DNA of 37,102 nucleotides from a virus: the UHGV virus genome UHGV-0134521; one strand, 5' to 3'. A program made the position numbers and the translations under genes. Of the stretch, positions 4,995 to 33,888 are shown one piece after another. Under the pieces are notes generated by a model that worked only from the letters and a program-made list of their open reading frames with translations, had not been told where the DNA came from and did no database searches. Position 1 is the first letter of the stretch; each line of letters begins with the position of its first letter.

Positions 4995-5221
4995 TGGCAG
5001 ATGCAATGGATCTCGTACAGCAGCGCGTTGAAGAAGAACGCCAGCGCTATATCCGTGCTGCCCGTGCCAAAACACCGGGCGTGTCTCGTGTGCTTTGTAT
5101 TGAATGTGAAGCGCCAATTCCGCCAGCACGACGCCGCGCCATTCCTGGAGTGCAGCTTTGCATTACCTGTCAGGAAATCGCAGAGCTGAAAGGCAAACAT
5201 TACAACGGAGGTGTTGTATGA
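4994..5221 (+). CDS. TraR/DksA-family C4 zinc-finger protein, 75 aa
   Basis: CIECEAPIP...CITCQ four-Cys motif typical of phage TraR-like proteins; AGGAG SD. Confidence 0.7.
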   Translation: MADAMDLVQQRVEEERQRYIRAARAKTPGVSRVLCIECEAPIPPARRRAIPGVQLCITCQEIAELKGKHYNGGVV

Positions 5222-6075
5222 GCACCATCCTGAAATGGGCGGGAAATAAAACCGCCATTATGTCCGAACTGAAAAAACATCTTCCTGCTGGCCCGCGACT
5301 GGTTGAACCTTTCGCGGGTTCCTGTGCTGTGATGATGGAGACGGATTACCCCAGCTATCTTGTTGCGGATATTAATCCTGATTTAATCAACCTCTATAAA
5401 AAGATTGTCGCTGATTGCGAAGCGTTTATATCTCGTGCCAGAGCTTTATTTGAGGAAGCAAACAGGGATGTGGCTTATTACAACATAAGGCAGGAGTTTA
5501 ATTACTCCACTGAAATTACTGATTTCATGAAAGCGGTATATTTCCTGTATCTCAATCGTCATGGTTACCGTGGGTTATGTCGCTATAACAAGAGCGGGCA
5601 TTTCAACATTCCGTACGGTAATTATAAAAATCCGTATTTCCCTGAAAAAGAAATTCGCGCATTTGCAGAGAAAGCCCAGCGGGCAACGTTTATCTGCGCA
5701 AGCTTTGATGAAACGCTGGCGATGCTGCAGGTGGGGGATGTGGTGTATTGCGATCCGCCGTATGACGGTACGTTTTCCGGCTATCACACTGATGGTTTCA
5801 CTGAAGATGACCAGTATCACCTGGCATCCGTTCTTGAACATCGGTCATCAGAAGGACATCCGGTCATTGTTTCTAACAGTGACACATCCCTGATCCGTTC
5901 GCTGTATCGCAATTTTACTCACCACTACATCAAGGCAAAACGCAGCATCGGTGTGGCAGCTGGTGAGAGTAAATCTGCAACAGAAATCATCGCTGTTTCC
6001 GGGCCGCGCTGCTGGGTGGGATTTGATCCTTCGCGTGGCGTGGATAGTTCAGCCGTGTACGGAGTACGTGCATGA
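5218..6075 (+). CDS. dam: DNA adenine methyltransferase (Dam-like, N6-adenine MTase)
   Basis: N-terminal KWAGNK...EPFAGSCAV (AdoMet binding) and DPPY catalytic motif; ATG 5218 with ACGGAGG SD, overlapping upstream stop. Confidence 0.85.
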
Positions 6076-8486
6076 GTCATGCCGATATGAACAACTGCTG
6101 CGGCTTTAACGAGGCTGCCGCAGCGTTCTCATGGAACAGCCCGAAAAAGGCCATTAACCCTTATCTGGACCCGGCGGAAGTTGCGCCGGTTTCTGCGCTT
6201 TCAAACCTGATCACTCTGTACGCTGCCGATAACGAGCAGGAACAACTGCGCCGCGAGGCACTGAGTGATCAGGTCTGGGAGCGTTATTTTTTTAATGAAT
6301 CACGTGATCCTGTCCAGCGCGAAATGGAGCAGGATAAGCTCATTAGCCGGGCAAAGCTGGCGCATGAGCAGCAGCGTTTTAATCCGGATATGGTCATTCT
6401 GGCGGACGTCAACGCCCAACCTTCCCATATCAGCAAGCCGCTGATGCAACGTATTGAATACTTTAGCAGCCTGGGCAGGCCAAAGGCTTATTCCCGCTAT
6501 TTACGTGAGACGATTAAGCCATGTCTGGAACGACTGGAGCATGTACGCGACAGCCAGCTATCTGCATCTTTTCGTTTTATGGCAAGCCATGAAGGGCTGG
6601 ACGGCCTGCTTATCCTGCCTGAAATGAGTCAGGATCAGGTGAAGCGCCTGTCTACCCTTGTCGCTGCGCATATGAGCATGTGCCTTGATGCCGCTTGTGG
6701 TGATTTGTATGCCACCGATGACGTTAAGCCAGAAGAAATCCGCAAAACATGGGAAAAGGTGGCAGCGGAAACCCTGCGTCTGGATGTTATTCCGCCTGCG
6801 TTTGAGCAACTCCGTCGGAAAAGAAACCGCCGTAAACCCGTGCCCTATGAACTCATTCCGGGTTCGCTGGCGCGTATGTTGTGTGCCGACTGGTGGTATC
6901 GGAAATTATGGAAGATGCGTTGCGAATGGCGGGAAGAGCAGTTGCGTGCTGTCTGCCTGGTCAGCAAAAAAGCATCTCCCTATGTCAGCTATGAAGCCGT
7001 GATGCATAAACGTGAGCAGCGCCGCAAGTCACTGGAGTTTTTCCGTTCTCATGAACTGGTGAACGAAGAGGGCGACACGCTGGATATGGAAGACGTGGTA
7101 AACGCCAGCAGCAGCAACCCGGCGCACCGCCGCAATGAGATGATGGCCTGTGTTAAAGGTCTGGAGCTTATCGCGGAAATGCGTGGTGATTGCGCCGTTT
7201 TCTACACCATTACCTGTCCGTCACGTTTCCATTCCACGCTCAATAACGGCAGACCAAACCCAACCTGGACAAATGCGACGGTAAGACAAAGCAGCGATTA
7301 TCTGGTCGGCATGTTTGCTGCATTTCGTAAGGCGATGCACAAAGCCGGGTTGCGCTGGTATGGCGTGCGGGTGGCTGAGCCGCATCATGACGGTACGGTT
7401 CACTGGCACCTGTTGTGTTTCATGCGCAAAAAAGACCGCCGTGCCATTACTGCATTGTTGCGTAAGTTTGCCATCCGTGAAGACCGCGAGGAACTGGGTA
7501 ATAACACTGGTCCACGCTTTAAATCTGAGCTGATAAACCCGCGCAAAGGAACACCGACAAGCTACATCGCGAAATACATTAGCAAAAACATTGACGGGCG
7601 TGGTCTGGCTGGCGAGATCAGCAAGGAAACGGGTAAATCCCTGCGTGATAACGCTGAATACGTTAATGCCTGGGCGTCTCTGCATCGTGTTCAGCAATTC
7701 CGCTTCTTTGGTATTCCGGGGCGTCAGGCTTACCGTGAACTGCGATTGCTGGCTGGTCAGGCGGCAAGGCAACAGGGCGACAAAAAAGCAGGTGCGCCGG
7801 TACTGGATAACCCGCGCCTTGATGCCATCCTGGCTGCTGCTGATGCTGGTTGTTTTGCCACTTACATCATGAAGCAGGGTGGCGTACTGGTTCCCCGCAA
7901 ATATCACCTCATCAGAACTGCTTATGAAATTAACGAAGAGCCGACCGCCTATGGCGATCACGGCATTCGTATTTATGGCATCTGGTCACCCATTGCAGAG
8001 GGCAAGATCTGCACTCATGCAGTGAAGTGGAAAATAGTTCGTAAAGCCGTTGACGTTCAGGAGGCGGTAGCCGACCAGGGCGCTTGCGCCCCTTGGACTC
8101 GTGGCAATAACTGTCCCCTTGCTGAAAATTTGAACCAACAGGAGAAAGATAAATCAGCTGATGGGGACCCCAGAACGGACATTACCAGCATGGATGACAA
8201 GGAGTTGCACGATTACCTGCACAGTATGAACAAAAAAGAGCGCCGGGAACTGGCTGCAAGGTTACGCCTGGTGAAACCGAAACGGCGTAAAGACTACAAA
8301 CAGCGAATTACAGACCATCAGCGACTGCAGCTCGTGTATGAGCTGAAGTCCAGAGGATTTGATGGCAGCGAGAAAGAGGTCGATTTACTCCTTCGCGGAG
8401 GCAGTATTCCGTCAGGAGCAGGCCTGCGTATCTTCTATCGGAACCAGCGTTTGCAAGAAGATGATCAGTGGCGGAACCTGTATTAA
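6072..8486 (+). CDS. A: Replication initiation protein A (P2 gpA-like rolling-circle endonuclease), 804 aa
   Basis: Size, position after early genes, ATGA overlap with dam, P2 A-like sequence. Confidence 0.9.
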
Positions 8487-8578
8487 TTACGCGGGTTAAC
8501 AATTCGTGCTCTTAATAATACCAGGCATATCAGGCTGATGAACGTAAAAAAACGTTTTACATCAGTAAGATTATTATA

Positions 8579-8598
8579 TACTGTAAATATAAACAGTG
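8579..8598. promoter_or_regulatory. LexA box (TACTGTAAATATAAACAGTG; CTGT-N8-ACAG) upstream of the small-ORF + DinI-like operon
   Basis: Matches the LexA consensus CTGT-N8-ACAG within an AT-rich promoter-like region about 40 bp before ATG 8640. Confidence 0.6.
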
Positions 8599-8639
8599 GT
8601 TATACATACAGCATTGCGTGTGGTGTCATAGGAGGAAAG

Positions 8640-8828
8640 ATGCAGGACTATTTTTTGGAGTCTTTGAAGCTCCAGCGCATTGATTTTTTTCTTAAGCTTG
8701 TAGCGGCTAGTGAGTGTAGTGATGAAGAGAAGGGGCTGGCTCTGCAGTGGGTTTCTGAATTGACTGATGAACTCATGGCAAAAATCAGAACCCACGAATA
8801 CAACCGCTCAATGGATGTCATCAGCTGA
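8640..8828 (+). CDS. Small protein, 62 aa, first gene of the LexA-controlled operon (possible Tum-like antirepressor component)
   Basis: ATG at 8640 after GGAGGA; immediately downstream of the LexA box. Confidence 0.5.
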   Translation: MQDYFLESLKLQRIDFFLKLVAASECSDEEKGLALQWVSELTDELMAKIRTHEYNRSMDVIS

Positions 8829-8838
8829 GGTGACTTTT

Positions 8839-9072
8839 ATGCGCATTGAAATAATGATCGATAAAGAGCAGAAGATTAGCCAGTCTACCCTGGACGCCCT
8901 TGAATCCGAGCTTTACCGCAATCTGCGCCCCCTGTATCCCAAAACGGTAATTCGCATTCGCAAAGGTAGCTCTAACGGTGTGGAACTAACCGGACTGCAA
9001 CTGGACGAAGAAAGAAAACAAGTGATGAAAATTATGCAGAAGGTGTGGGAAGACGACAGCTGGCTGCATTAA
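8839..9072 (+). CDS. DinI-family protein, 77 aa
   Basis: MRIEIMIDKEQKI...WEDDSWLH resembles E. coli DinI (MRIEVTIAK...W...DDWF); GAGGTGA SD. Confidence 0.7.
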   Translation: MRIEIMIDKEQKISQSTLDALESELYRNLRPLYPKTVIRIRKGSSNGVELTGLQLDEERKQVMKIMQKVWEDDSWLH

Positions 9073-9207: not shown

Positions 9208-9231
9208 GCCCGCCAGAACTGGCGGGCTTTT
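9208..9231 (+). terminator. Rho-independent terminator after the DinI-like operon
   Basis: GCCCGCCA / TGGCGGGC stem with short loop, followed by TTTTG. Confidence 0.55.
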
Positions 9232-9295: not shown

Positions 9296-9309
9296 CGCGC
9301 GCTGAGTAA

Positions 9310-9343
9310 ATCCATTGCGCCAGCTAATCCAATGGATTACAAT
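9310..9343 (+). promoter_or_regulatory. Candidate sigma70 promoter (-35 TTGCGC 9315..9320, -10 TACAAT 9338..9343) with 7-bp inverted repeat TCCATTG/CAATGGA (9310..9316, 9331..9337)
   Basis: Hexamers with 17-bp spacing read from sequence; inverted repeat brackets the spacer; about 25 bp upstream of cassette gene 1. Confidence 0.35.
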
Positions 9344-9365: not shown

Positions 9366-10022
9366 ATGAAAGAAAAAATGATAAATGAAATGCCATCGGC
9401 CCATATTAAGCAGTTAAGGGCCAAAACTGGTTTAACTCAAGAGGAATTTTGCGAGACTTTCGGTCTTAATCTCAACACCTATCGTCATTGGGAGAGGGGG
9501 GATAGAAAACCAACTGGCTCATCATTAGTTTTGCTAAAACTTATTGAGGAGTCTTTTCACGAAGTGCTATCAATTATGAAAAAAATCAAGGGGGATGGTC
9601 CAATAATGTCAGATGGTAAAACACTTATACTTAAATCACTTGAACAAGATAGATTTTTCACTTTTGAACGTTTTGTAAAAGAAAGTTCTTTTTTTTCTGC
9701 GGATGCCATTTGTGCTCTTATTAAAGCTAATGGTTTTCCTTATGTTTATTTTTCAAATAACCAAGGGGAACTTGTATTTTCAGCAGGTTATGAAATTGAA
9801 GATATGAAAGAAGTGTTCTGGGTCAAGAATGATGATAGAACATATGGTGGATCTCTCAAAACTGTCGTTGAAAAAACTTATAGTTCAATCTATGCGATAG
9901 AAGTTGACCTGCAAGATGCTGTTTATTGGACTCCGGAAATGAGAAACTCAAGAATAGTCGATATTACCGAGAAAACAGGAATTGAACGTGACTTTTTTAA
10001 CAATATTTTAAGGAATTGGTAG
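9366..10022 (+). CDS. Cassette gene 1: XRE-family HTH domain (HigA/MqsA-antitoxin-like) fused to a ~160-aa C-terminal domain of unknown function
   Basis: N-terminal KQLRAKTGLTQEEFCETFGLNLNTYRHWERGDRKPTGSSLVLLKLIEE is a typical XRE HTH; ATG 9366 after GAGGG; AT-rich. Confidence 0.65.
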   Translation: MKEKMINEMPSAHIKQLRAKTGLTQEEFCETFGLNLNTYRHWERGDRKPTGSSLVLLKLIEESFHEVLSIMKKIKGDGPIMSDGKTLILKSLEQDRFFTFERFVKESSFFSADAICALIKANGFPYVYFSNNQGELVFSAGYEIEDMKEVFWVKNDDRTYGGSLKTVVEKTYSSIYAIEVDLQDAVYWTPEMRNSRIVDITEKTGIERDFFNNILRNW

Positions 10023-10023
10023 T

Positions 10024-10695
10024 ATGCGTGGTAAACTAATCAGCTTTGAAGGTATTGATGGTAGTGGGAAAGGAACTCAATCGAAGCTGCTTTTCGAAAA
10101 ACTAAATGCAATAGGGGAAACGGCAAAGCTATTTAGTTTTCCTTGTTACGAGAATACTTTTTTTGGAAAAGAAATAGGTGCATTTTTGAGAGGTGAATTT
10201 GGCGGGATTAATGATGTACATCCTAAACTCGCTTCAATTTTATACGCAATGGATCGTTTTGAGAAAAGGCAAGAAATTGTAAGTTCCTTAGATCAAGGAA
10301 TTGTAGTAATTTGTGACCGTTATGTCGATTCTAATATCGCGCATCAATCGTCTAAACTTGCAGTTTCTCAGCAGAAGGAATTTATTGATTGGGTTAGTGC
10401 ATTAGAATATGAATTTAATAAAATGCCTGTGCCTGATTTAACATTTTTCCTGAATGTTCCTTTGGATATTTCAAAGGAAATGGTACTGAAGAAGAAAAAA
10501 AGAAGCTACACTGACTCCGAAGAAGATATACATGAAAGAGCATATGATTATTTAGAAAGAGTATTGTTAGCATACAATAAAATTGATTTCGGCACGCGCT
10601 GGAACTTAATTGAGTGCTGTAATAATAATAATCTGATGGATCCTGAGTCAATAAGTGATTTAATATTTAAAATTGTCATGAAAGGGCTTAGATAA
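10024..10695 (+). CDS. Cassette gene 2: thymidylate-kinase-fold P-loop NMP kinase-like protein, 223 aa
   Basis: FEGIDGSGKGTQ P-loop-like segment, CDRYVDSNIAHQS (Tmk DRY motif) and PDLTFFLNVPLDIS (Tmk PDLT motif); start 1 nt after gene 1 stop. Confidence 0.7.
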   Translation: MRGKLISFEGIDGSGKGTQSKLLFEKLNAIGETAKLFSFPCYENTFFGKEIGAFLRGEFGGINDVHPKLASILYAMDRFEKRQEIVSSLDQGIVVICDRYVDSNIAHQSSKLAVSQQKEFIDWVSALEYEFNKMPVPDLTFFLNVPLDISKEMVLKKKKRSYTDSEEDIHERAYDYLERVLLAYNKIDFGTRWNLIECCNNNNLMDPESISDLIFKIVMKGLR

Positions 10696-11615
10696 TGCAC
10701 GAGTTGTTGAGAAAAAAACACTCTAGGAATAGTTTCATTACTCTATTTGTTATAGTTGTAACATTAATACTGCTTCTTCGGTATGCTGTACTTCCTTATT
10801 TTTACCCTCCACAATCAACTGATTTTGGGGGCTTTATTGCGACATTATTAAATGGGCTATTTTCATCCTTAACAGTAACCTTCTTGATCGGTTTATTTAT
10901 GTTTTGGATTCAGCCGAAACCTGAAAATTATGCTAAAATAGAAATTGCATATCCTAAAGAATTACCAGAACTTTTCAATGTTGCGTTCCTTAAAACGGAA
11001 ATTTGGTATTATAAAGGTGGATGTGGAAGATATTTTAGAACAGCTACGTTACCAAATATGGCGAAACAGGCTAGATCAAAGTCACAGTCAAAAGAAATTT
11101 TGGTTGTTATCCTTGATCCAACTAATATTGATTTATGTGAAAAACACGCTATTTACAGAAGTGGTACAGCATCACAAGAAATTGAAATTAGGCCTTGGAC
11201 AACAGAGGAAGTTCGCGCTGAGTTGTTTGCAACGATTATTACAACGCTAATTACTCAAGCCAAAGAACCTTCATTAAGAATAAAATTATCATTATGCCCT
11301 CACTATTCATCTTTTAGGATAGATTTATCAGATGATTACGCTATTATTACAAAGGAAGATCGCAATTCTCCGGCCATTATATGTCATAAGGGGACTCATT
11401 TTTATAAATCTTATAAAGATGAAGTAATTTTGTCTCTAAACCAATCACGTAGTGTTCGTATGATAGATCAAGTTGATTTTACTCTAAGAGATATTGATGG
11501 CACGAAAGTTAAATCTTTGTTATCTGATGCTGGTTTAGATGATAACAATCTCACGCCGACTTTCTATGACAAGGTCGCGTCGTTATGTAAAGAGGCGAAA
11601 AATCCATATGCATGA
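10695..11615 (+). CDS. Cassette gene 3: membrane protein with two N-terminal transmembrane helices and a ~230-aa soluble domain, 306 aa
   Basis: Two hydrophobic stretches near the N-terminus (FITLFVIVVTLILLL; LFSSLTVTFLIGLFMFWI); start overlaps gene 2 stop (TAATG). Confidence 0.6.
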   Translation: MHELLRKKHSRNSFITLFVIVVTLILLLRYAVLPYFYPPQSTDFGGFIATLLNGLFSSLTVTFLIGLFMFWIQPKPENYAKIEIAYPKELPELFNVAFLKTEIWYYKGGCGRYFRTATLPNMAKQARSKSQSKEILVVILDPTNIDLCEKHAIYRSGTASQEIEIRPWTTEEVRAELFATIITTLITQAKEPSLRIKLSLCPHYSSFRIDLSDDYAIITKEDRNSPAIICHKGTHFYKSYKDEVILSLNQSRSVRMIDQVDFTLRDIDGTKVKSLLSDAGLDDNNLTPTFYDKVASLCKEAKNPYA

Positions 11616-12246
11616 TTATATGAATGAAATCTATCAAAAAATAACTAATAAAGAATCGTTCGATGTTAAACGTTTCTTTACTTGCTTGGTTGATAATTTT
11701 GATAATTTTGATCCTACTTGGCATGCATTGGGATTTATTCATTGCCGTTTAGCTCAGAATGATCAAGGGACTTTACGCTTACATATTTGGTTCAAAAATG
11801 ATTCACATCCTGCTGAACAGTTAGAAAAAATTCATGATCATAAATTCTCGTTGAATAGCTATGTGTTGTACGGTGCAATATGTAACGAGGTTTTTGAACT
11901 TATAGAAACGTCATCTGGAAAATATGATTACCAGGCCTATGCAGTTAAATATCTTGATAAAGGTTCAGAGTTAATCCCTTTAGCCACTTATTATAATGTT
12001 AGTGATGTATCTTCAAGTATAATAAGGGCTGGTTGTTATTATACGGTTGACTCCAGAGAGTTTCACCGATCATCACTTGTAAATAGTGAGATGGCGATAT
12101 CACTAGTGGCGACTTTTGAGCATAAAAATAAAGACCCTTTGACTTTGGTATCTCATGGGGGGAGTGAGTTTAAAATAAGAGATAAGGTTCCATTTGATAA
12201 GAACAAATGGGTGGAGATATTAAAAGAATACATATCAAAATTATGA
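11608..12246 (+). CDS. Cassette gene 4: hypothetical soluble protein, ~212 aa
   Basis: In-frame ATG at 11608 overlapping gene 3 stop by 8 nt; His-rich segments; no family recognised. Confidence 0.55.
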   Translation: MHDYMNEIYQKITNKESFDVKRFFTCLVDNFDNFDPTWHALGFIHCRLAQNDQGTLRLHIWFKNDSHPAEQLEKIHDHKFSLNSYVLYGAICNEVFELIETSSGKYDYQAYAVKYLDKGSELIPLATYYNVSDVSSSIIRAGCYYTVDSREFHRSSLVNSEMAISLVATFEHKNKDPLTLVSHGGSEFKIRDKVPFDKNKWVEILKEYISKL

Positions 12247-12253
12247 TGTTAGC

Positions 12254-12277
12254 TGCCAGATAGGATTTATCTGGCAG
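12254..12277. terminator. Hairpin (CTGCCAGATA / TATCTGGCAG) between convergent cassette gene 4 and portal gene
   Basis: Perfect 10-bp stem, short loop, followed by TGGGTTT on the + strand. Confidence 0.5.
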
Positions 12278-12282
12278 TGGGT

Positions 12283-13311
12283 TTAATTTAACTCGTATTG
12301 CCTAAAGCGAATAATTTCATCCCCAGCCCATGGATTTAATGCGAGAAATTTCTTCTGTAACGGAAGTAGTTCATTTTTGACGAAAACATTCGCAGCCTTC
12401 TCCACGTCCCCAAACCCCCCAACATTATTCGGCATAATCCCCATCATCTGTGGCGGAACACGATGCGCGGCCATCATGTCATCACGACTCACGTTCTTGA
12501 TGTTCAGAAATTCATCTTTCGCTGCAACTTCTGACAACGGGATGATCTGAAGCCCGTCCTTTTTGCCGTTAGGCGAGTACATAAACAGGTTACGGAAGTT
12601 ACCCGGACCTTTGGCACTTTTCATCGCGTTGCGGAGGTTGTTTACGTCCTCCTGGTTCTGCGCGGCATCGGTCATGTACATGATGAAGCCAGCATGACTG
12701 CCGTTAATGTAATACTTCCGGCGGAACAGCGTGGCGGACTCGTTGAGCAGGGCTGACGGAATGGCAGAAAGATAACCGGGCAGGCCGTAGATCTCCTGGT
12801 TGATGTCCGGTTCCATCAGATGAAAGATGCTGCCTTTCGTGAACTGATATGGCTGGGTTGTCATACCGTATTGCACAAACCAGTAGGTATCCAGGTCTAA
12901 CCCGCGTCGTGTGTATTTCGCCAGGGCAGGTTCAAGGGCGATAACTTCACCGAAGCGGTTCGTGCGTTTCTCCAGGTAGGCGTTACCAAATACCAGATAG
13001 TCCTGCACAAAACGTGAAAAAGCCTGCTGGCTGAGCAGCGTGTGAGGGATGTAGGTACTGGTCAGAATGTTGCATTTCACCGCAATTGGTGAACTGTGAT
13101 GCACGGCAGCGCGGAAGGTGCGCGCCAGTCCGTCAAAGCTTACTGGCGGCTCATACCAGCGATCTGTCTGTACGCATTCCACATAGTCCAGCAGTTCGCG
13201 GCGGTCCAGAACAGGAACGGGATCACCGAAGCTGAATGCTTCGGCTGAAGTCTGGCTTTTATGCTGGATCTGGTTCGTCGATGCAGCGCGGTTCTTCTTA
13301 CTCTTGCCCAT
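12283..13311 (-). CDS. Q: Capsid portal protein (P2 gpQ-like)
   Basis: P2 Q-like sequence and position; ATG at 13311 overlaps P stop by 1 nt. Confidence 0.9.
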   Translation of the reverse strand: MGKSKKNRAASTNQIQHKSQTSAEAFSFGDPVPVLDRRELLDYVECVQTDRWYEPPVSFDGLARTFRAAVHHSSPIAVKCNILTSTYIPHTLLSQQAFSRFVQDYLVFGNAYLEKRTNRFGEVIALEPALAKYTRRGLDLDTYWFVQYGMTTQPYQFTKGSIFHLMEPDINQEIYGLPGYLSAIPSALLNESATLFRRKYYINGSHAGFIMYMTDAAQNQEDVNNLRNAMKSAKGPGNFRNLFMYSPNGKKDGLQIIPLSEVAAKDEFLNIKNVSRDDMMAAHRVPPQMMGIMPNNVGGFGDVEKAANVFVKNELLPLQKKFLALNPWAGDEIIRFRQYELN

Positions 13312-15077
13312 CAAAAAATCTCCACAATATTGCTGGTATTGGCGGACTCGCCCTGCAGCGGTTCGTTAAACAGTGCGTGCATTGTTGCCCAGGCCAGATC
13401 CGCATGGCTGGCTTCTTCGCTGCGGCTGGCTTCATAGGTCGGGCGGTTGCCGCTGGCGGTGGTGGCGCGACGGATTGCCATAAATGACTGCGCTATGTCG
13501 GTGTGTCCGGCGTCAAACTCCAGACGGCGGTGACTGATAATGTCGTAGGCCTTGAGTACCAGGGCGTTTTTAACGTTGGGGTTGTAGACAAACTCCCGGA
13601 CGGCAGGAAAGAACGCTTTCACGTTCTCGTAAACCCCGTGGCCGACACCTGTCGAGTCGATGCCGATATAGGTCACGTTGTACTGCTCGGTCAGTTTTTT
13701 GATGGCGTCTGCCTGGGCGCGGAAGTCCATCCCGCGCCACTGGTGACGCTCAAGAATGCGGAACTTACCACCAGGCACGGCTGGCGGCGCCACCACCACG
13801 CATCCGGCGCTGTCGCCGTTTTGCGTACCTTTTGCCGGGTCATAACCGATCCACACTTCGCGCCAGCCAAACGGGCGCAGAGCCAGTGCATGAAAGTCGG
13901 TCCAGACTTCCCAGCTGTCCACCATGCACGCCTGCAGCTCGCTGAGCGGGAACACGGACGCGAGATCGTCCACAAACTCGCACATCAGCAGGTTCTGGTA
14001 TTCGTCCGGGCTGTACTCCATGCGCAACTGGTCAAGGTCGAACAGGTTACAGCCGCCGCGCACCGCATCTTCCACGGTGACTATCTGGCGGTATTGCCCG
14101 TCAGCGCACAGCAGGCCGGGGGCCAGATTGCTGTGGGACAGGTCGATGTCCACCTTATCGGCTTTGTTGCGCCCACGGTTGAATAGCGCACCGGACCAGA
14201 ACGGATAAGCACTGTGTGTCAGGCTGGATGGCGTGGAAAAATAGGTTTGTCGCCATTTCTTGTGAATAGCCATACCGGAAGCCACTTTGCGCAGCTCCTG
14301 GAATTTCGGTATCCAGAAATATTCATCCAGATACAGGTTGCCGTGATAACTCTGGGCAGTGCGGGCATTGGTGCCGAGGAAGTAAAGCGTGGCCCCGTTA
14401 GGAAGCACCATCGGATCGCCTTTCAACTCCACCTCCACTTCTTTGGCGAAGTCGATGATGTACTGCTTAAAGACGTTGGCCTGTGCCTTGCTGGCGGAAA
14501 GGAAAATCTGGTTACGTCCGGCCAGCAGGGCGTCAATCAGGGCTTCACGGGCAAAGTAAAATGTCGCGCCGATCTGGCGTGACTTCAGCAGGTTGCGGAT
14601 GCGGTTGGTTTTTCCGGCTTCCCACCAGTGGCGCTGGTAGTTGAACATGGAGGAATGGAAGATTTCTTCCAGCTTCTCAATCTGCTCATCGGTGAAATCA
14701 TTCTTTTCCGGCTGACGGCGTGGGCCTTTGTTGCGGTTGGCGACGTTAGGGTTTAAGTCGGATTCGTTGCCGCCATTGTTAAACTTGCCGATCCGCGCGT
14801 GGCGCTCAGACTGGCGCGCCAGCAGGTCAATCTCTTTGAAATCTTTCCCTTCTTTGTGCTCCTTCATGATGAGCTGGCAGTAGCGTGCGGCGGTGGTGAG
14901 CTGCATCTGATCCAGCGGCCCATAGTCACCCCACTTGTCGCGTTTTTTCCAGCTGTGAACGGTTGCAACTTTCTCGCCCAGCATTTCAGCAATGCGGGCT
15001 ACGCGGTATCCCTGAAAGTACAGCAGCATGGCCTGCCGACGGGGATCGAGATCTGTGGGTGTCAGTGTGGTGTTCAT
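13311..15077 (-). CDS. P: Terminase large (ATPase) subunit (P2 gpP-like), 588 aa
   Basis: Size, position divergent from O, P2 P-like sequence. Confidence 0.9.
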   Translation of the reverse strand: MNTTLTPTDLDPRRQAMLLYFQGYRVARIAEMLGEKVATVHSWKKRDKWGDYGPLDQMQLTTAARYCQLIMKEHKEGKDFKEIDLLARQSERHARIGKFNNGGNESDLNPNVANRNKGPRRQPEKNDFTDEQIEKLEEIFHSSMFNYQRHWWEAGKTNRIRNLLKSRQIGATFYFAREALIDALLAGRNQIFLSASKAQANVFKQYIIDFAKEVEVELKGDPMVLPNGATLYFLGTNARTAQSYHGNLYLDEYFWIPKFQELRKVASGMAIHKKWRQTYFSTPSSLTHSAYPFWSGALFNRGRNKADKVDIDLSHSNLAPGLLCADGQYRQIVTVEDAVRGGCNLFDLDQLRMEYSPDEYQNLLMCEFVDDLASVFPLSELQACMVDSWEVWTDFHALALRPFGWREVWIGYDPAKGTQNGDSAGCVVVAPPAVPGGKFRILERHQWRGMDFRAQADAIKKLTEQYNVTYIGIDSTGVGHGVYENVKAFFPAVREFVYNPNVKNALVLKAYDIISHRRLEFDAGHTDIAQSFMAIRRATTASGNRPTYEASRSEEASHADLAWATMHALFNEPLQGESANTSNIVEIF

Positions 15078-32309: not shown

Positions 32310-32791
32310 TGATGGTGCTGGGATTGTACGTGTTTATGCTGCGCACCGTGCCGTATCAGGAGCTGCAGTATCAACGCAGCTGGCGACATGCGGCAAACAG
32401 CCGGGTAAACCGACGTCCGTCCACGCAGTTTCTGGGACCGGACAACGACATGCTGACGCTTTCCGGTGTTCTTATGCCGGAGATAACGGGCGGTAGGCTG
32501 TCGTTGCTGGCTCTGGAGCAGATGGCAGAACAGGGAAAAGCATGGCCCCTGATTGAAGGCAGCGGCACGATTTACGGCATGTATGTGATTGAGGGACTGA
32601 ATCAGACTAAAACGGAGTTTTTCCGCGACGGTATGCCGCGCCGGATTGAGTTCACCCTGTCGCTCAAACGGGTGGATGAATCCCTGTCCGATATGTTCGG
32701 TGATCTCAGTACGCAACTGAATAATCTGCAGGACACGGCAACGTCTGCCTTAAGCGATATCAGTAAAACGGTGGGAGGGCTGCTGTCGTGA
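32306..32791 (+). CDS. U: Tail protein gpU-like
   Basis: Position, size, overlap with T stop. Confidence 0.85.
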   Translation: MMMVLGLYVFMLRTVPYQELQYQRSWRHAANSRVNRRPSTQFLGPDNDMLTLSGVLMPEITGGRLSLLALEQMAEQGKAWPLIEGSGTIYGMYVIEGLNQTKTEFFRDGMPRRIEFTLSLKRVDESLSDMFGDLSTQLNNLQDTATSALSDISKTVGGLLS

Positions 32792-33888
32792 ATTTCAGCT
32801 CTGAACTGCTTAACAAAGGCAACAAAACTCCGGCATTCAGCATCAGTATTGAAGGCAGGGATATCACTACTGTGCTGGACAACCGCCTGATGGGGCTTAC
32901 GCTGACGGATAACCGGGGCTTTGAAGCGGACCAGCTTGATCTGGAGCTGGACGACGCCGATGGAAAAATCGTGCTGCCGCGCCGTGGTGCGGTCATTACG
33001 CTGGCGCTGGGCTGGAAGGGGCAGCCGCTTTTCCCGAAAGGGGCATTCACGGTGGACGAGATTGAACACACTGGCGCACCGGACCGCCTGACTATCCGGG
33101 CGCGAAGTGCTGATTTTCGTGAAACACTGAATACCCGCCGTGAAAAGTCGTGGCACAAGACCACCGTTGGGGAAGTGGTGAAGGAAATAGCTGCGCGGCA
33201 CAAACTGAAGATGGCATTGGGTAAAGACCTGTCAGATAAACCCGTGGAACATATAGATCAGACCAATGAGAGTGACGGCAGTTTTCTGATGCGGCTGGCG
33301 CGCCAGTACGGTGCTATTGCGTCGGTGAAAAATGGCAATCTGTTATTCATCCGACAGGGGCAGGGTAAAAGCGCCAGTGGTAAACCACTACCGGTTATCA
33401 CTATCACACGTAAGGACGGCGACAGTCACCGCTTTACCCTGGCAGATCGCGGAGCTTACACGGGCGTAATTGCCAGCTGGTTGCATACCCGCGAACCCGC
33501 GAAGAAAGAAAGCACCGCGGTGAAGCGTAAGCGCAGGACTAAGAAGCAGAAGAAAGAGCCGGAAGCGAAGCAGGGCGATTACCTGGTGGGTACGGATGAA
33601 AACGTGCTGGTACTTAATCGCACCTATGCTAATCGGAGTAACGCCGAACGGGCAGCGAAAATGCAGTGGGAACGCCTGCAACGCGGCGTTGCGTCATTCT
33701 CGCTACAACTGGCGGAAGGGCGGGCAGATCTCTACACGGAAATGCCAGTGAAAGTCAGTGGCTTTAAACAGCCGATAGATGATGCGGAATGGACCATTAC
33801 GACTCTGACGCATACCGTCAGCCCGGATAACGGTTTTACGACCAGTCTGGAGCTTGAAGTGAGGATTGATGATTTCGAAATGGAATGA
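32788..33888 (+). CDS. D: Tail protein / late control gene D-like
   Basis: Position, size, P2 D-like. Confidence 0.85.
   Translation: MNFSSELLNKGNKTPAFSISIEGRDITTVLDNRLMGLTLTDNRGFEADQLDLELDDADGKIVLPRRGAVITLALGWKGQPLFPKGAFTVDEIEHTGAPDRLTIRARSADFRETLNTRREKSWHKTTVGEVVKEIAARHKLKMALGKDLSDKPVEHIDQTNESDGSFLMRLARQYGAIASVKNGNLLFIRQGQGKSASGKPLPVITITRKDGDSHRFTLADRGAYTGVIASWLHTREPAKKESTAVKRKRRTKKQKKEPEAKQGDYLVGTDENVLVLNRTYANRSNAERAAKMQWERLQRGVASFSLQLAEGRADLYTEMPVKVSGFKQPIDDAEWTITTLTHTVSPDNGFTTSLELEVRIDDFEME

Follow-up and report, generated by a model that had tools for sequence, protein, structure and literature searches.

A thymidylate-kinase-family gene with the ordinary P-loop of its subfamily in a mobile, candidate anti-phage cassette of a P2/186-like prophage

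We analyzed a gene of the virus genome UHGV-0134521, a stretch of 37,102 nucleotides that is referred to here in its whole length as the window and that is a complete P2/186-like prophage flanked by host genes. The open reading frame (ORF) at positions 10024-10695 (plus strand, 223 aa) encodes, as judged from its sequence, a genuine protein of the thymidylate kinase (Tmk) family. The glycine that directly follows the P-loop lysine, which a preliminary description of this DNA had singled out as atypical, was found to be the normal state of the subfamily to which the protein belongs. We consider it fairly probable that this is a competent Tmk-family kinase acting on deoxythymidine monophosphate (dTMP) or a related pyrimidine (deoxy)nucleoside monophosphate ((d)NMP), and that its gene is the second in a mobile, candidate anti-phage operon built from a core gene pair and an accessory part consisting of Tmk and a domain termed X, an operon whose mechanism we infer.

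The family assignment rests on several independent models. Pfam PF02223 matched residues 8-196 with an E value of 2.4e-24 (86.5 bits against a gathering score of 27), and the dTMP kinase model TIGR00041 scored 86.5 bits, above its cutoff of 83.25. The top NCBIfam model was the actinobacterial-type PRK07933 (130.2 bits), whose equivalog cutoff of 193 was not reached, so that the protein is a relative of that group and not a member of it. PHROG 761, annotated as "thymidylate kinase", matched with an E value of 1e-24, and Tmk structures in the PDB, including those from Plasmodium, human, Mycobacterium tuberculosis and Staphylococcus aureus, matched at 1e-16 to 1e-8. The pairwise alignment with the M. 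tuberculosis enzyme (TMPK) gave 28% identity over 200 aa (E 4e-22). The E. coli-type Tmk was not among the 33 PDB matches at E<=1e-5, and no adenylate kinase (Adk) model in Pfam or NCBIfam scored above the Tmk models.

The sequence hallmarks first described for this ORF (EGIDGxGK..TQ, DRY and PDLT) were all recovered, and the profile alignment, named at that time as the comparison that might expose the motif matches as spurious, placed the family match far beyond chance. The P-loop EGIDGSGKGTQ occupies residues 9-19 (10048-10080), with the GxxGxGK pattern and its preceding E-G-x-D present as EGIDGSGK, of which E9, G10, D12, G13, G15 and K16 are invariant in the clade. The segment CDRYVDSNIAHQS lies at residues 97-109 and includes DRYVDSNIAHQ (residues 98-108; 10315-10347), in which D98 and R99 correspond to M. 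tuberculosis D94 and R95, N104 to N100 and H107 to Y103. The PDLT motif is found at residues 137-140. The LID region, VLKKKKRSYTDSEEDIHER, spans approximately residues 153-172 (10480-10539) and holds the invariant basic residues K157 and R160 together with the invariant Y162, D168 and E171.

We then considered the residue after the P-loop lysine. Gly17 is indeed present and is unlike the GK[S/T]T common to the human, Plasmodium and S. aureus Tmks; however, it is not atypical among the protein's own relatives. GSGKGT was found in 96 of the 120 closest homologues, the remainder carrying N, H, K or R at the Gly17 position and none carrying Ser or Thr. A comparison of deposited chains showed GAGKRT in M. 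tuberculosis TMPK (PDB 1g3u; see also 1gsi) and GAGKGTQ in E. coli Adk (PDB 1ake). The place of human Ser20 is taken by Arg14 in the M. tuberculosis enzyme (PMC3619541), which indicates that Ser or Thr after the lysine is not needed by an active dTMP kinase. The P-loops of E. coli Adk and the window Tmk end identically in G-x-G-K-G-T-Q, while the rest of the window protein is of Tmk type (DRY motif, Tmk LID); from the Adk loop, glycine after the lysine is standard in active nucleoside monophosphate (NMP) kinases.

The same loop was encountered in ordinary genomic settings. A metagenome scan recovered DGSGK[GN]TQ in more than 556 relatives, including a GSGKNT Tmk located directly before the gene of DNA polymerase III delta' (holB; PF13177, E 1e-37) on a 1.47-Mb contig, one beside gyrA and one between a MiaB-like gene and an inorganic pyrophosphatase gene. 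In large phage genomes (75-270 kb), Tmks of the same type adjoin ThyX and dCTP deaminase, adenosine deaminase, or a family A DNA polymerase. Since M. tuberculosis TMPK has Arg14 and GK(G/N)T occurs in Tmks of housekeeping position and of phages, Ser/Thr after the lysine is not truly defining for Tmk. GSGK(G/N)TQ is, on this sequence evidence, the normal P-loop of an M. tuberculosis-like Tmk subfamily and no anomaly, and the glycine does not mark an unusual or inactive enzyme, given that housekeeping-position chromosomal Tmks, phage Tmks and Adk share the loop and that an active TMPK has Arg in its place. The supposed Walker A anomaly is by itself ordinary; it is the cassette context that carries the interest.

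The remainder of the active site was found to be intact. Among 34 diverse clade members the invariant positions were E9, G10, D12, G13, S14, G15, K16, T18, Q19, F39, P40 and Y42 in the first part of the protein, followed by D77, R78, D98, R99, S103, N104, H107, Q108, K157, R160, Y162, D168 and E171. In the site table drawn from the alignment, D168 and E171 correspond to M. tuberculosis Asp163 and Glu166, which we take from the structure literature to be the Mg site. For the dTMP-binding positions, the published roles (PMC3619541) carry over by alignment as follows: D12 corresponds to Asp9 (sugar-hydroxyl binding), Y42 to Tyr39 (phosphate contact), position 74, which is Tyr or Phe in the clade and Tyr in the window, to Phe70 (thymine stacking), R78 and N104 to Arg74 and Asn100 (thymine hydrogen bonds), and R99 to Arg95 (phosphate contact). 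Clade invariants also map onto Lys13 and Phe36, and the FPxY motif, including the M. tuberculosis-specific Tyr39, is common to the two enzymes. Two M. tuberculosis positions are changed in the window protein (Arg14 to Gly17 and Tyr103 to His107), its LID is Lys-rich (KKKKRSY) where that of M. tuberculosis is Arg-rich, and the M. tuberculosis gene is a housekeeping gene whereas the window gene is a second paralogue in a mobile cassette. The residue at Tyr103 of TMPK (Tyr/Phe) is presumably a discriminator at the sugar 2' position. We rejected the idea that His107 is a defence-specific specificity switch, as the same His was found in several phage Tmks of metabolic clusters.

The ratio of nonsynonymous to synonymous substitution (dN/dS) between the window Tmk and its Klebsiella copy was 0.12, and across all four cassette genes it ranged from 0.10 to 0.16. 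The ORF probably encodes an active kinase of dTMP or a close, possibly modified, pyrimidine (d)NMP; PF02223 also takes in CMP/UMP kinases such as CMPK2. Because the dTMP- and Mg-binding residues are invariant, the decoy and dead-sensor readings are much less likely than that of an active pyrimidine (d)NMP kinase. Of the roles suggested earlier, action on dTMP or a modified dNMP is thus retained as the best guess from the conserved residues, and the decoy and inactive-sensor readings are argued against by the clade-invariant catalytic and substrate positions and by the low dN/dS.

The setting of the gene agrees with the defence-type locus that had been proposed for it. Tmk is the second of four co-directional genes that are separated by 1-nt gaps or overlap, together span approximately 2.9 kb and have a G+C fraction of 0.31-0.37 versus about 0.52 in the flanks. 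The cassette lies between gpA (6072-8486) with the DinI-like gene (8767-9072) on one side and the portal gene Q (12283-13314, minus strand) on the other, which is the variable locus of P2. Antiviral systems are known to accumulate in the P2 and P4 hotspots (Rousset et al. 2022, PMC9122126), and the cassette resembles the P2 "old/tin" hotspot cargo in its place (gene A region to portal Q), its low GC and its exchange between similar prophages. The operon being such cargo, it is a candidate anti-phage system. The cited study differs in that it describes no system with such a kinase, the word "thymidylate" being absent from its text. Likeness to the P2 backbones of E. coli genomes ends at about 9306-9310; a search of 5,426 complete E. 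coli genomes and 50,697 phage records at megablast sensitivity returned the backbone to about 9310 and none of the cassette DNA.

Gene 1 (9366-10022, plus strand, 218 aa) encodes an Xre/MqsA-type helix-turn-helix (HTH) protein with a C-terminal X domain (HTH_3, E 2e-8; MqsA-type HTH). Its start was placed at the ATG at 9366 behind GAGGG, and the resulting 218 aa matches the length of its homologues. The X domain (residues ~82-218; 9609-10019) is uncharacterised, and profile searches found no relative of it in Pfam or among PDB sequences. Among 1.84 billion proteins it accounts for only 28 representative clusters, of which 7 have it fused to an HTH (~217 aa) and 21 have it stand-alone (~140 aa). 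Upstream of the gene, a 15-bp palindrome, TAATCCAATGGATTA, at 9325-9339 overlaps a -10-like TACAAT at 9338-9343. The same palindrome, TAATCCAnTGGATTA, was observed 25-45 nt upstream of gene 1 in the cassettes of Klebsiella, Raoultella, Pectobacterium, Pantoea, Acinetobacter and Stutzerimonas (loci L001, L005, L007, L009, L010, L011 and L026), and it is kept across these six genera though the flanking sequences are unrelated. On this conservation the palindrome is likely the operator of the HTH-X protein. At the other end, a terminator-like hairpin with a 12-bp stem (12252-12278) lies between the cassette and the convergent portal gene, whose stop is at 12283. A GC-rich hairpin, GCCCGCCA-GAAC-TGGCGGGC followed by TTTT (9208-9231), was seen by eye downstream of the DinI-like gene and was absent from the consensus-scan list; it looks like a terminator parting the P2 backbone from the cassette promoter.

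Genes 3 and 4 were additionally subjected to structure prediction. Gene 3 (10695-11615, plus strand, 306 aa), whose start codon overlaps the Tmk stop by one base (TAATG), encodes two N-terminal transmembrane helices (2TM) and a phospholipase D (PLD)/Nuc-fold domain lacking the catalytic HKD motif. The AlphaFold2 model had a confidence (pLDDT) of 84 and the PLD/Nuc fold, and the domain is predicted to be cytoplasmic because the N-terminus is basic and the number of helices even. Conservation of the catalytic HxK(x)4D motif is lacking, as only 18 of 27 sequences have His at position 203 and 26 of 27 have Ser at position 205; for this reason a PLD nuclease or phospholipase effector was considered and rejected. 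Without the conserved His/Lys pair, the protein therefore resembles non-catalytic, ligand- or partner-binding PLD members such as FAM83 and TrmB. Its invariant features include a Gly/Arg-rich loop (W-x-Y-K-G-G-C-G-R-Y-F-R) and the NPY at the C-terminus. Gene 4 (11608-12246, plus strand, 212 aa) overlaps gene 3 by 8 nt and is a cupin beta-barrel to which cysteine/thiol dioxygenases are closest. Its invariant IHDH...FHxS histidines include H76-x-H78 and H153, spaced as in cupin motifs 1 and 2 and with no Glu at the fourth ligand position, and we propose from these residues that it carries a candidate 3-His metal site. Searches of Pfam, NCBIfam, PADLOC and PHROGs gave nothing informative for either gene, the sole match being phrog_4784 (unknown function) for gene 4, and neither gene's profile found anything significant among PDB sequences.

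The distribution of the cassette was assessed at 16 genome, 80 metagenome and 16 viral loci. The same four genes in the same order were found in P2-like prophages of Klebsiella and Raoultella, where they occupy the hotspot used in the window, in a Pectobacterium P4-like element after integrase, AlpA and primase, on a Pantoea prophage-sized contig, and on the chromosomes of Acinetobacter baumannii, Stutzerimonas and Stenotrophomonas. Such cassettes are rare, being present on 3 of 2.9 million IMG/VR contigs. Relatives of gene 3 among 185,579 species genomes were found at 16 loci, and each of these with enough sequence carried the gene 3 and gene 4 pair. HTH-X and Tmk were confined to the clade in which gene 3 shares 45% or more identity with the window gene; ten more distant complete loci, from Beta- and Gammaproteobacteria, hold the pair without Tmk or X, and one truncated contig has gene 3 alone. 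As Tmk and X are missing from the distant loci, the 2TM-PLD-like protein and the cupin form the core, and Tmk and X are accessory.

Genes found next to the core pair encode AbiV, a KAP NTPase, a 1072-aa SIR2 protein, a PD-(D/E)XK nuclease and a 1060-aa HsdR-like ORF, the last recognised by eye alone. At two distant loci (L017:1065-2006 and L022:9644-10591), a cN-IA-type 5'-nucleotidase (PF06189, E ~1e-125) abuts a Tmk-less core pair, which suggests that the accessory role can be filled by different (d)NMP-acting enzymes. Three further observations were recorded at cassette-bearing loci. In one Klebsiella P2-like prophage (L002:3567-6810), RVT_1 reverse-transcriptase genes (retron-/DRT-like, partly fragmented) immediately precede the cassette as tandem cargo. 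In another Klebsiella prophage (L001:172-1848), a 558-aa SNIPE/T5orf172/MUG113-domain protein lies beside the CI repressor at the element's other variable end, where the window has no equivalent. In the metagenomic full cassette (L045:5675-6595), the 2TM-PLD gene is split into two ORFs, which could reflect a frameshift, a pseudogene or a sequencing error.

We also examined the operons in which other Tmks of the same clade are found. The closest Tmks (45-58% identity), from Venatorbacter, Marinobacter and several metagenomic contigs, belong to a second operon family whose partners are present variably. One partner is a CxxxCxxC protein distantly like the PA0069/Rv2578c-type radical S-adenosylmethionine (radical-SAM) enzymes (NF033668, E 2e-11 to 9e-5, under cutoff), and another is a membrane-anchored protein with an orotate phosphoribosyltransferase (PRTase)-like motif (E 1e-5 to 3e-7, under cutoff). 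A stand-alone X domain is often present (E 4e-29 and 5e-15 with the cassette HTH-X profile), and one such operon (L041) has a different 2TM protein. These operons were located at L041:2876-5678, L042:3000-5672 and L043:3463-6783, and also in L046, L048, L049, L054 and L073; none of the partners in them has a PADLOC match. Among the 80 best metagenomic loci, 1 held the full four-gene cassette, 4 the radical-SAM-like and PRTase-like genes with Tmk, 1 the radical-SAM-like gene with X and Tmk, 1 X and Tmk on a short contig, and 73 Tmk alone. Given these varied contexts, Tmk, often together with X, behaves as a portable module on alternative enzymes that plausibly act on pyrimidine nucleotides, and the second operon family looks like a mobile pathway for pyrimidine nucleotides that is so far undescribed. 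In Planctobacterium marinum (L006:7001-7666), a 56%-identical Tmk stands alone right after recA, followed by small opposite-strand genes of unknown function and with no cassette partner.

The four-gene set matches no PADLOC system and no published system that we found, and literature searches for a Tmk-containing defence system, for PDC-M51 and for a cupin with Tmk returned nothing relevant. The closest functional analogy appears to be the optional NMP kinase accompanying viperins, which the Tmk resembles. Viperins are often linked to NMP kinases; a kinase accompanies just 12% of bacterial viperins (bioRxiv 10.1101/2023.09.13.557418). In both cases an NMP kinase of the Tmk/CMPK2 superfamily (CMPK2-like and VakA kinases in viperin systems) is an optional accessory to an enzyme-based antiviral module, present with a minority of viperins there and with one clade of the core pair here. 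However, the match of VakA to the window Tmk is weak (E 2e-5), far below that of the generic Tmk model, and the cassette has a cupin and a 2TM protein as partners in place of a viperin or other radical-SAM gene. The radical-SAM-like partner of the sister operons likewise differs from viperin in being of the PA0069/Rv2578c type.

Two further systems were compared. The component M51B of PDC-M51 was the top PADLOC match of the window Tmk (E 2.3e-10, 38.5 bits); it reflects fold-level similarity alone because it is weaker than the generic Tmk Pfam score, and genes 1, 3 and 4 match no PADLOC model. In the Kongming system (KomABC, dITP signalling), a kinase and a base-modifying enzyme make a non-canonical nucleotide that activates an effector, a logic similar to that proposed below for the cassette. 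There, however, the kinase is derived from the phage, the modifier is an adenosine deaminase and the effector a SIR2 complex, whereas in the cassette the kinase is encoded by the operon itself and there are no homologous proteins.

For the operon as a whole we propose that the kinase would set the supply of a pyrimidine nucleotide, by feeding or draining it. This nucleotide would be modified by the cupin or sensed by the PLD-like domain that the membrane protein exposes to the cytoplasm; the 2TM protein would be the effector, and HTH-X would repress the operon via the conserved palindrome. One specific form of this scheme, which is possible but doubtful, is a nucleotide-based immune pathway in which Tmk phosphorylates a pyrimidine (d)NMP and the cupin, as a metal-dependent oxygenase with a 3-His site, modifies the nucleotide. 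The product, a non-canonical pyrimidine nucleotide, would either poison phage replication or, as a second messenger bound by the HKD-less PLD-like domain, trigger abortive infection through the 2TM protein, and X would couple kinase or nucleotide status to transcription. In such a pathway the PA0069-type radical-SAM and orotate-PRTase-like enzymes of the sister operons would do the equivalent of the cupin's job.

Several points weigh against reading the cassette as a kinase-assisted antiviral operon. The kinase appears dispensable for the basic function because the core pair occurs without it in most loci, and the adjacency of the 5'-nucleotidase, seen at 2 of 11 such loci, could be a coincidence. 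The gene 4 profile matched no characterised enzyme among PDB sequences, which bears on the metal site and the nucleotide chemistry proposed for the cupin. The sugar specificity of the kinase could differ owing to His107 in place of Tyr103. Finally, no experimental report of the cassette's biochemistry or of phage protection by it was found in the literature.

An alternative that we regard as unlikely is that active Tmk and X together form a sensor module, detecting infection through a surge of dNMPs from host DNA breakdown or through a phage dNMP such as hydroxymethyl-dUMP (hm-dUMP), with X relaying the signal to the HTH, so that the operon is de-repressed, or, where X stands alone, to the partner enzymes; the kinase would then be a detector and not a supplier. 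Nucleotide-kinase activity is itself the trigger of Kongming immunity (bioRxiv 10.1101/2024.12.20.629578), which is a precedent in favour of such sensing. Within the operons, X is fused to the HTH and encoded right before Tmk, and its stand-alone form adjoins the same Tmk clade in unrelated operons; that X is a rare family found in both architectures and that the operator is conserved also point this way. Against it, L043-type operons have Tmk without X, and by sequence X has no recognisable fold relative.

The kinase might also act on its own, independently of genes 3 and 4, by distorting pyrimidine pools or by turning a phage-made or modified dNMP into a toxic dNDP or dNTP, which seems quite improbable. 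Nucleotide-pool manipulation is an established category of defence (dCTP deaminase and dGTPase systems), the kinase retains its catalytic residues, and solo members of the clade exist, such as the one beside recA in Planctobacterium. However, the position of the kinase gene relative to genes 3 and 4, including their translational coupling, is kept in cassettes ranging from Klebsiella to Acinetobacter, among which Tmk identity falls to about 50%. Solo relatives are for the most part housekeeping genes or metabolic genes of phages, and the host already has an essential Tmk for the same reaction.

We think it very unlikely that the cassette has no defensive role and is a prophage moron or auxiliary metabolic module for pyrimidine salvage or modification, serving phage or host at a site that merely tolerates cargo. 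Its large-phage relatives are ordinary nucleotide-metabolism genes, the L043/L044 operon adjoins flagellin and an FkbM-type methyltransferase with no obvious defence genes, and no component matches a validated defence protein, all of which would fit such a module. Yet it was found in P2 hotspots as well as P4-like ones, and both are sites of strong enrichment for antiviral systems (PMC9122126). AbiV, the KAP NTPase, the SIR2 protein and the PD-(D/E)XK nuclease near the core pair also speak against it, as do the 2TM protein, which is typical of abortive-infection effectors, and the low GC, sporadic distribution and own putative repressor of the cassette. The least supported, and highly improbable, rival is a catalytically dead decoy or guard that mimics the host Tmk to trap a phage inhibitor or senses without turnover: the defence-hotspot position, the Gly in place of Ser/Thr after the lysine and the fact that Enterobacteriaceae already carry an essential E. 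coli-type tmk, which makes the window Tmk a second paralogue, would suit it, but the glycine is the subfamily norm in housekeeping-position and phage Tmks alike, every catalytic and substrate-contact position is invariant, and the window Tmk would be a poor mimic of the host Tmk surface because it is distant from the E. coli-type enzyme, which its PDB matches do not include.

Under the favoured reading, that of an active kinase in a candidate anti-phage operon, the kinase would be a defence-linked accessory NMP kinase of a kind already known, and the cassette a candidate new defence system. A predicted-active pyrimidine kinase and the rare X domain form a modular accessory in at least two mobile operon families that are undescribed in the databases and papers searched, one of which occupies the best-validated defence hotspot of enterobacterial prophages. 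The cupin and the membrane-anchored HKD-less PLD domain match no PADLOC defence model. Should the cassette prove antiviral, bacterial immunity would gain a nucleotide-centred, kinase-assisted system whose protein folds are new to it. At four genes and approximately 2.9 kb, it is small and easy to test.

The rest of the prophage follows the P2/186 layout. The integrase (691-1899) is followed by a CI repressor, the portal gene by the large terminase, and gpD is located at 32788-33888. Just before gpA, an orphan D12-class (Dam-like) N6-adenine DNA methyltransferase was observed at 5158-6075 (PF02086, E 2e-77). Two overlapping ORFs lie between gpA and the cassette, one encoding a phrog_698 protein of unknown function (8538-8828) and the other the DinI-like RecA-filament-binding protein (8767-9072); the listed start of the latter probably lies too far upstream, given that its profile match sets in only at residue 18-25.

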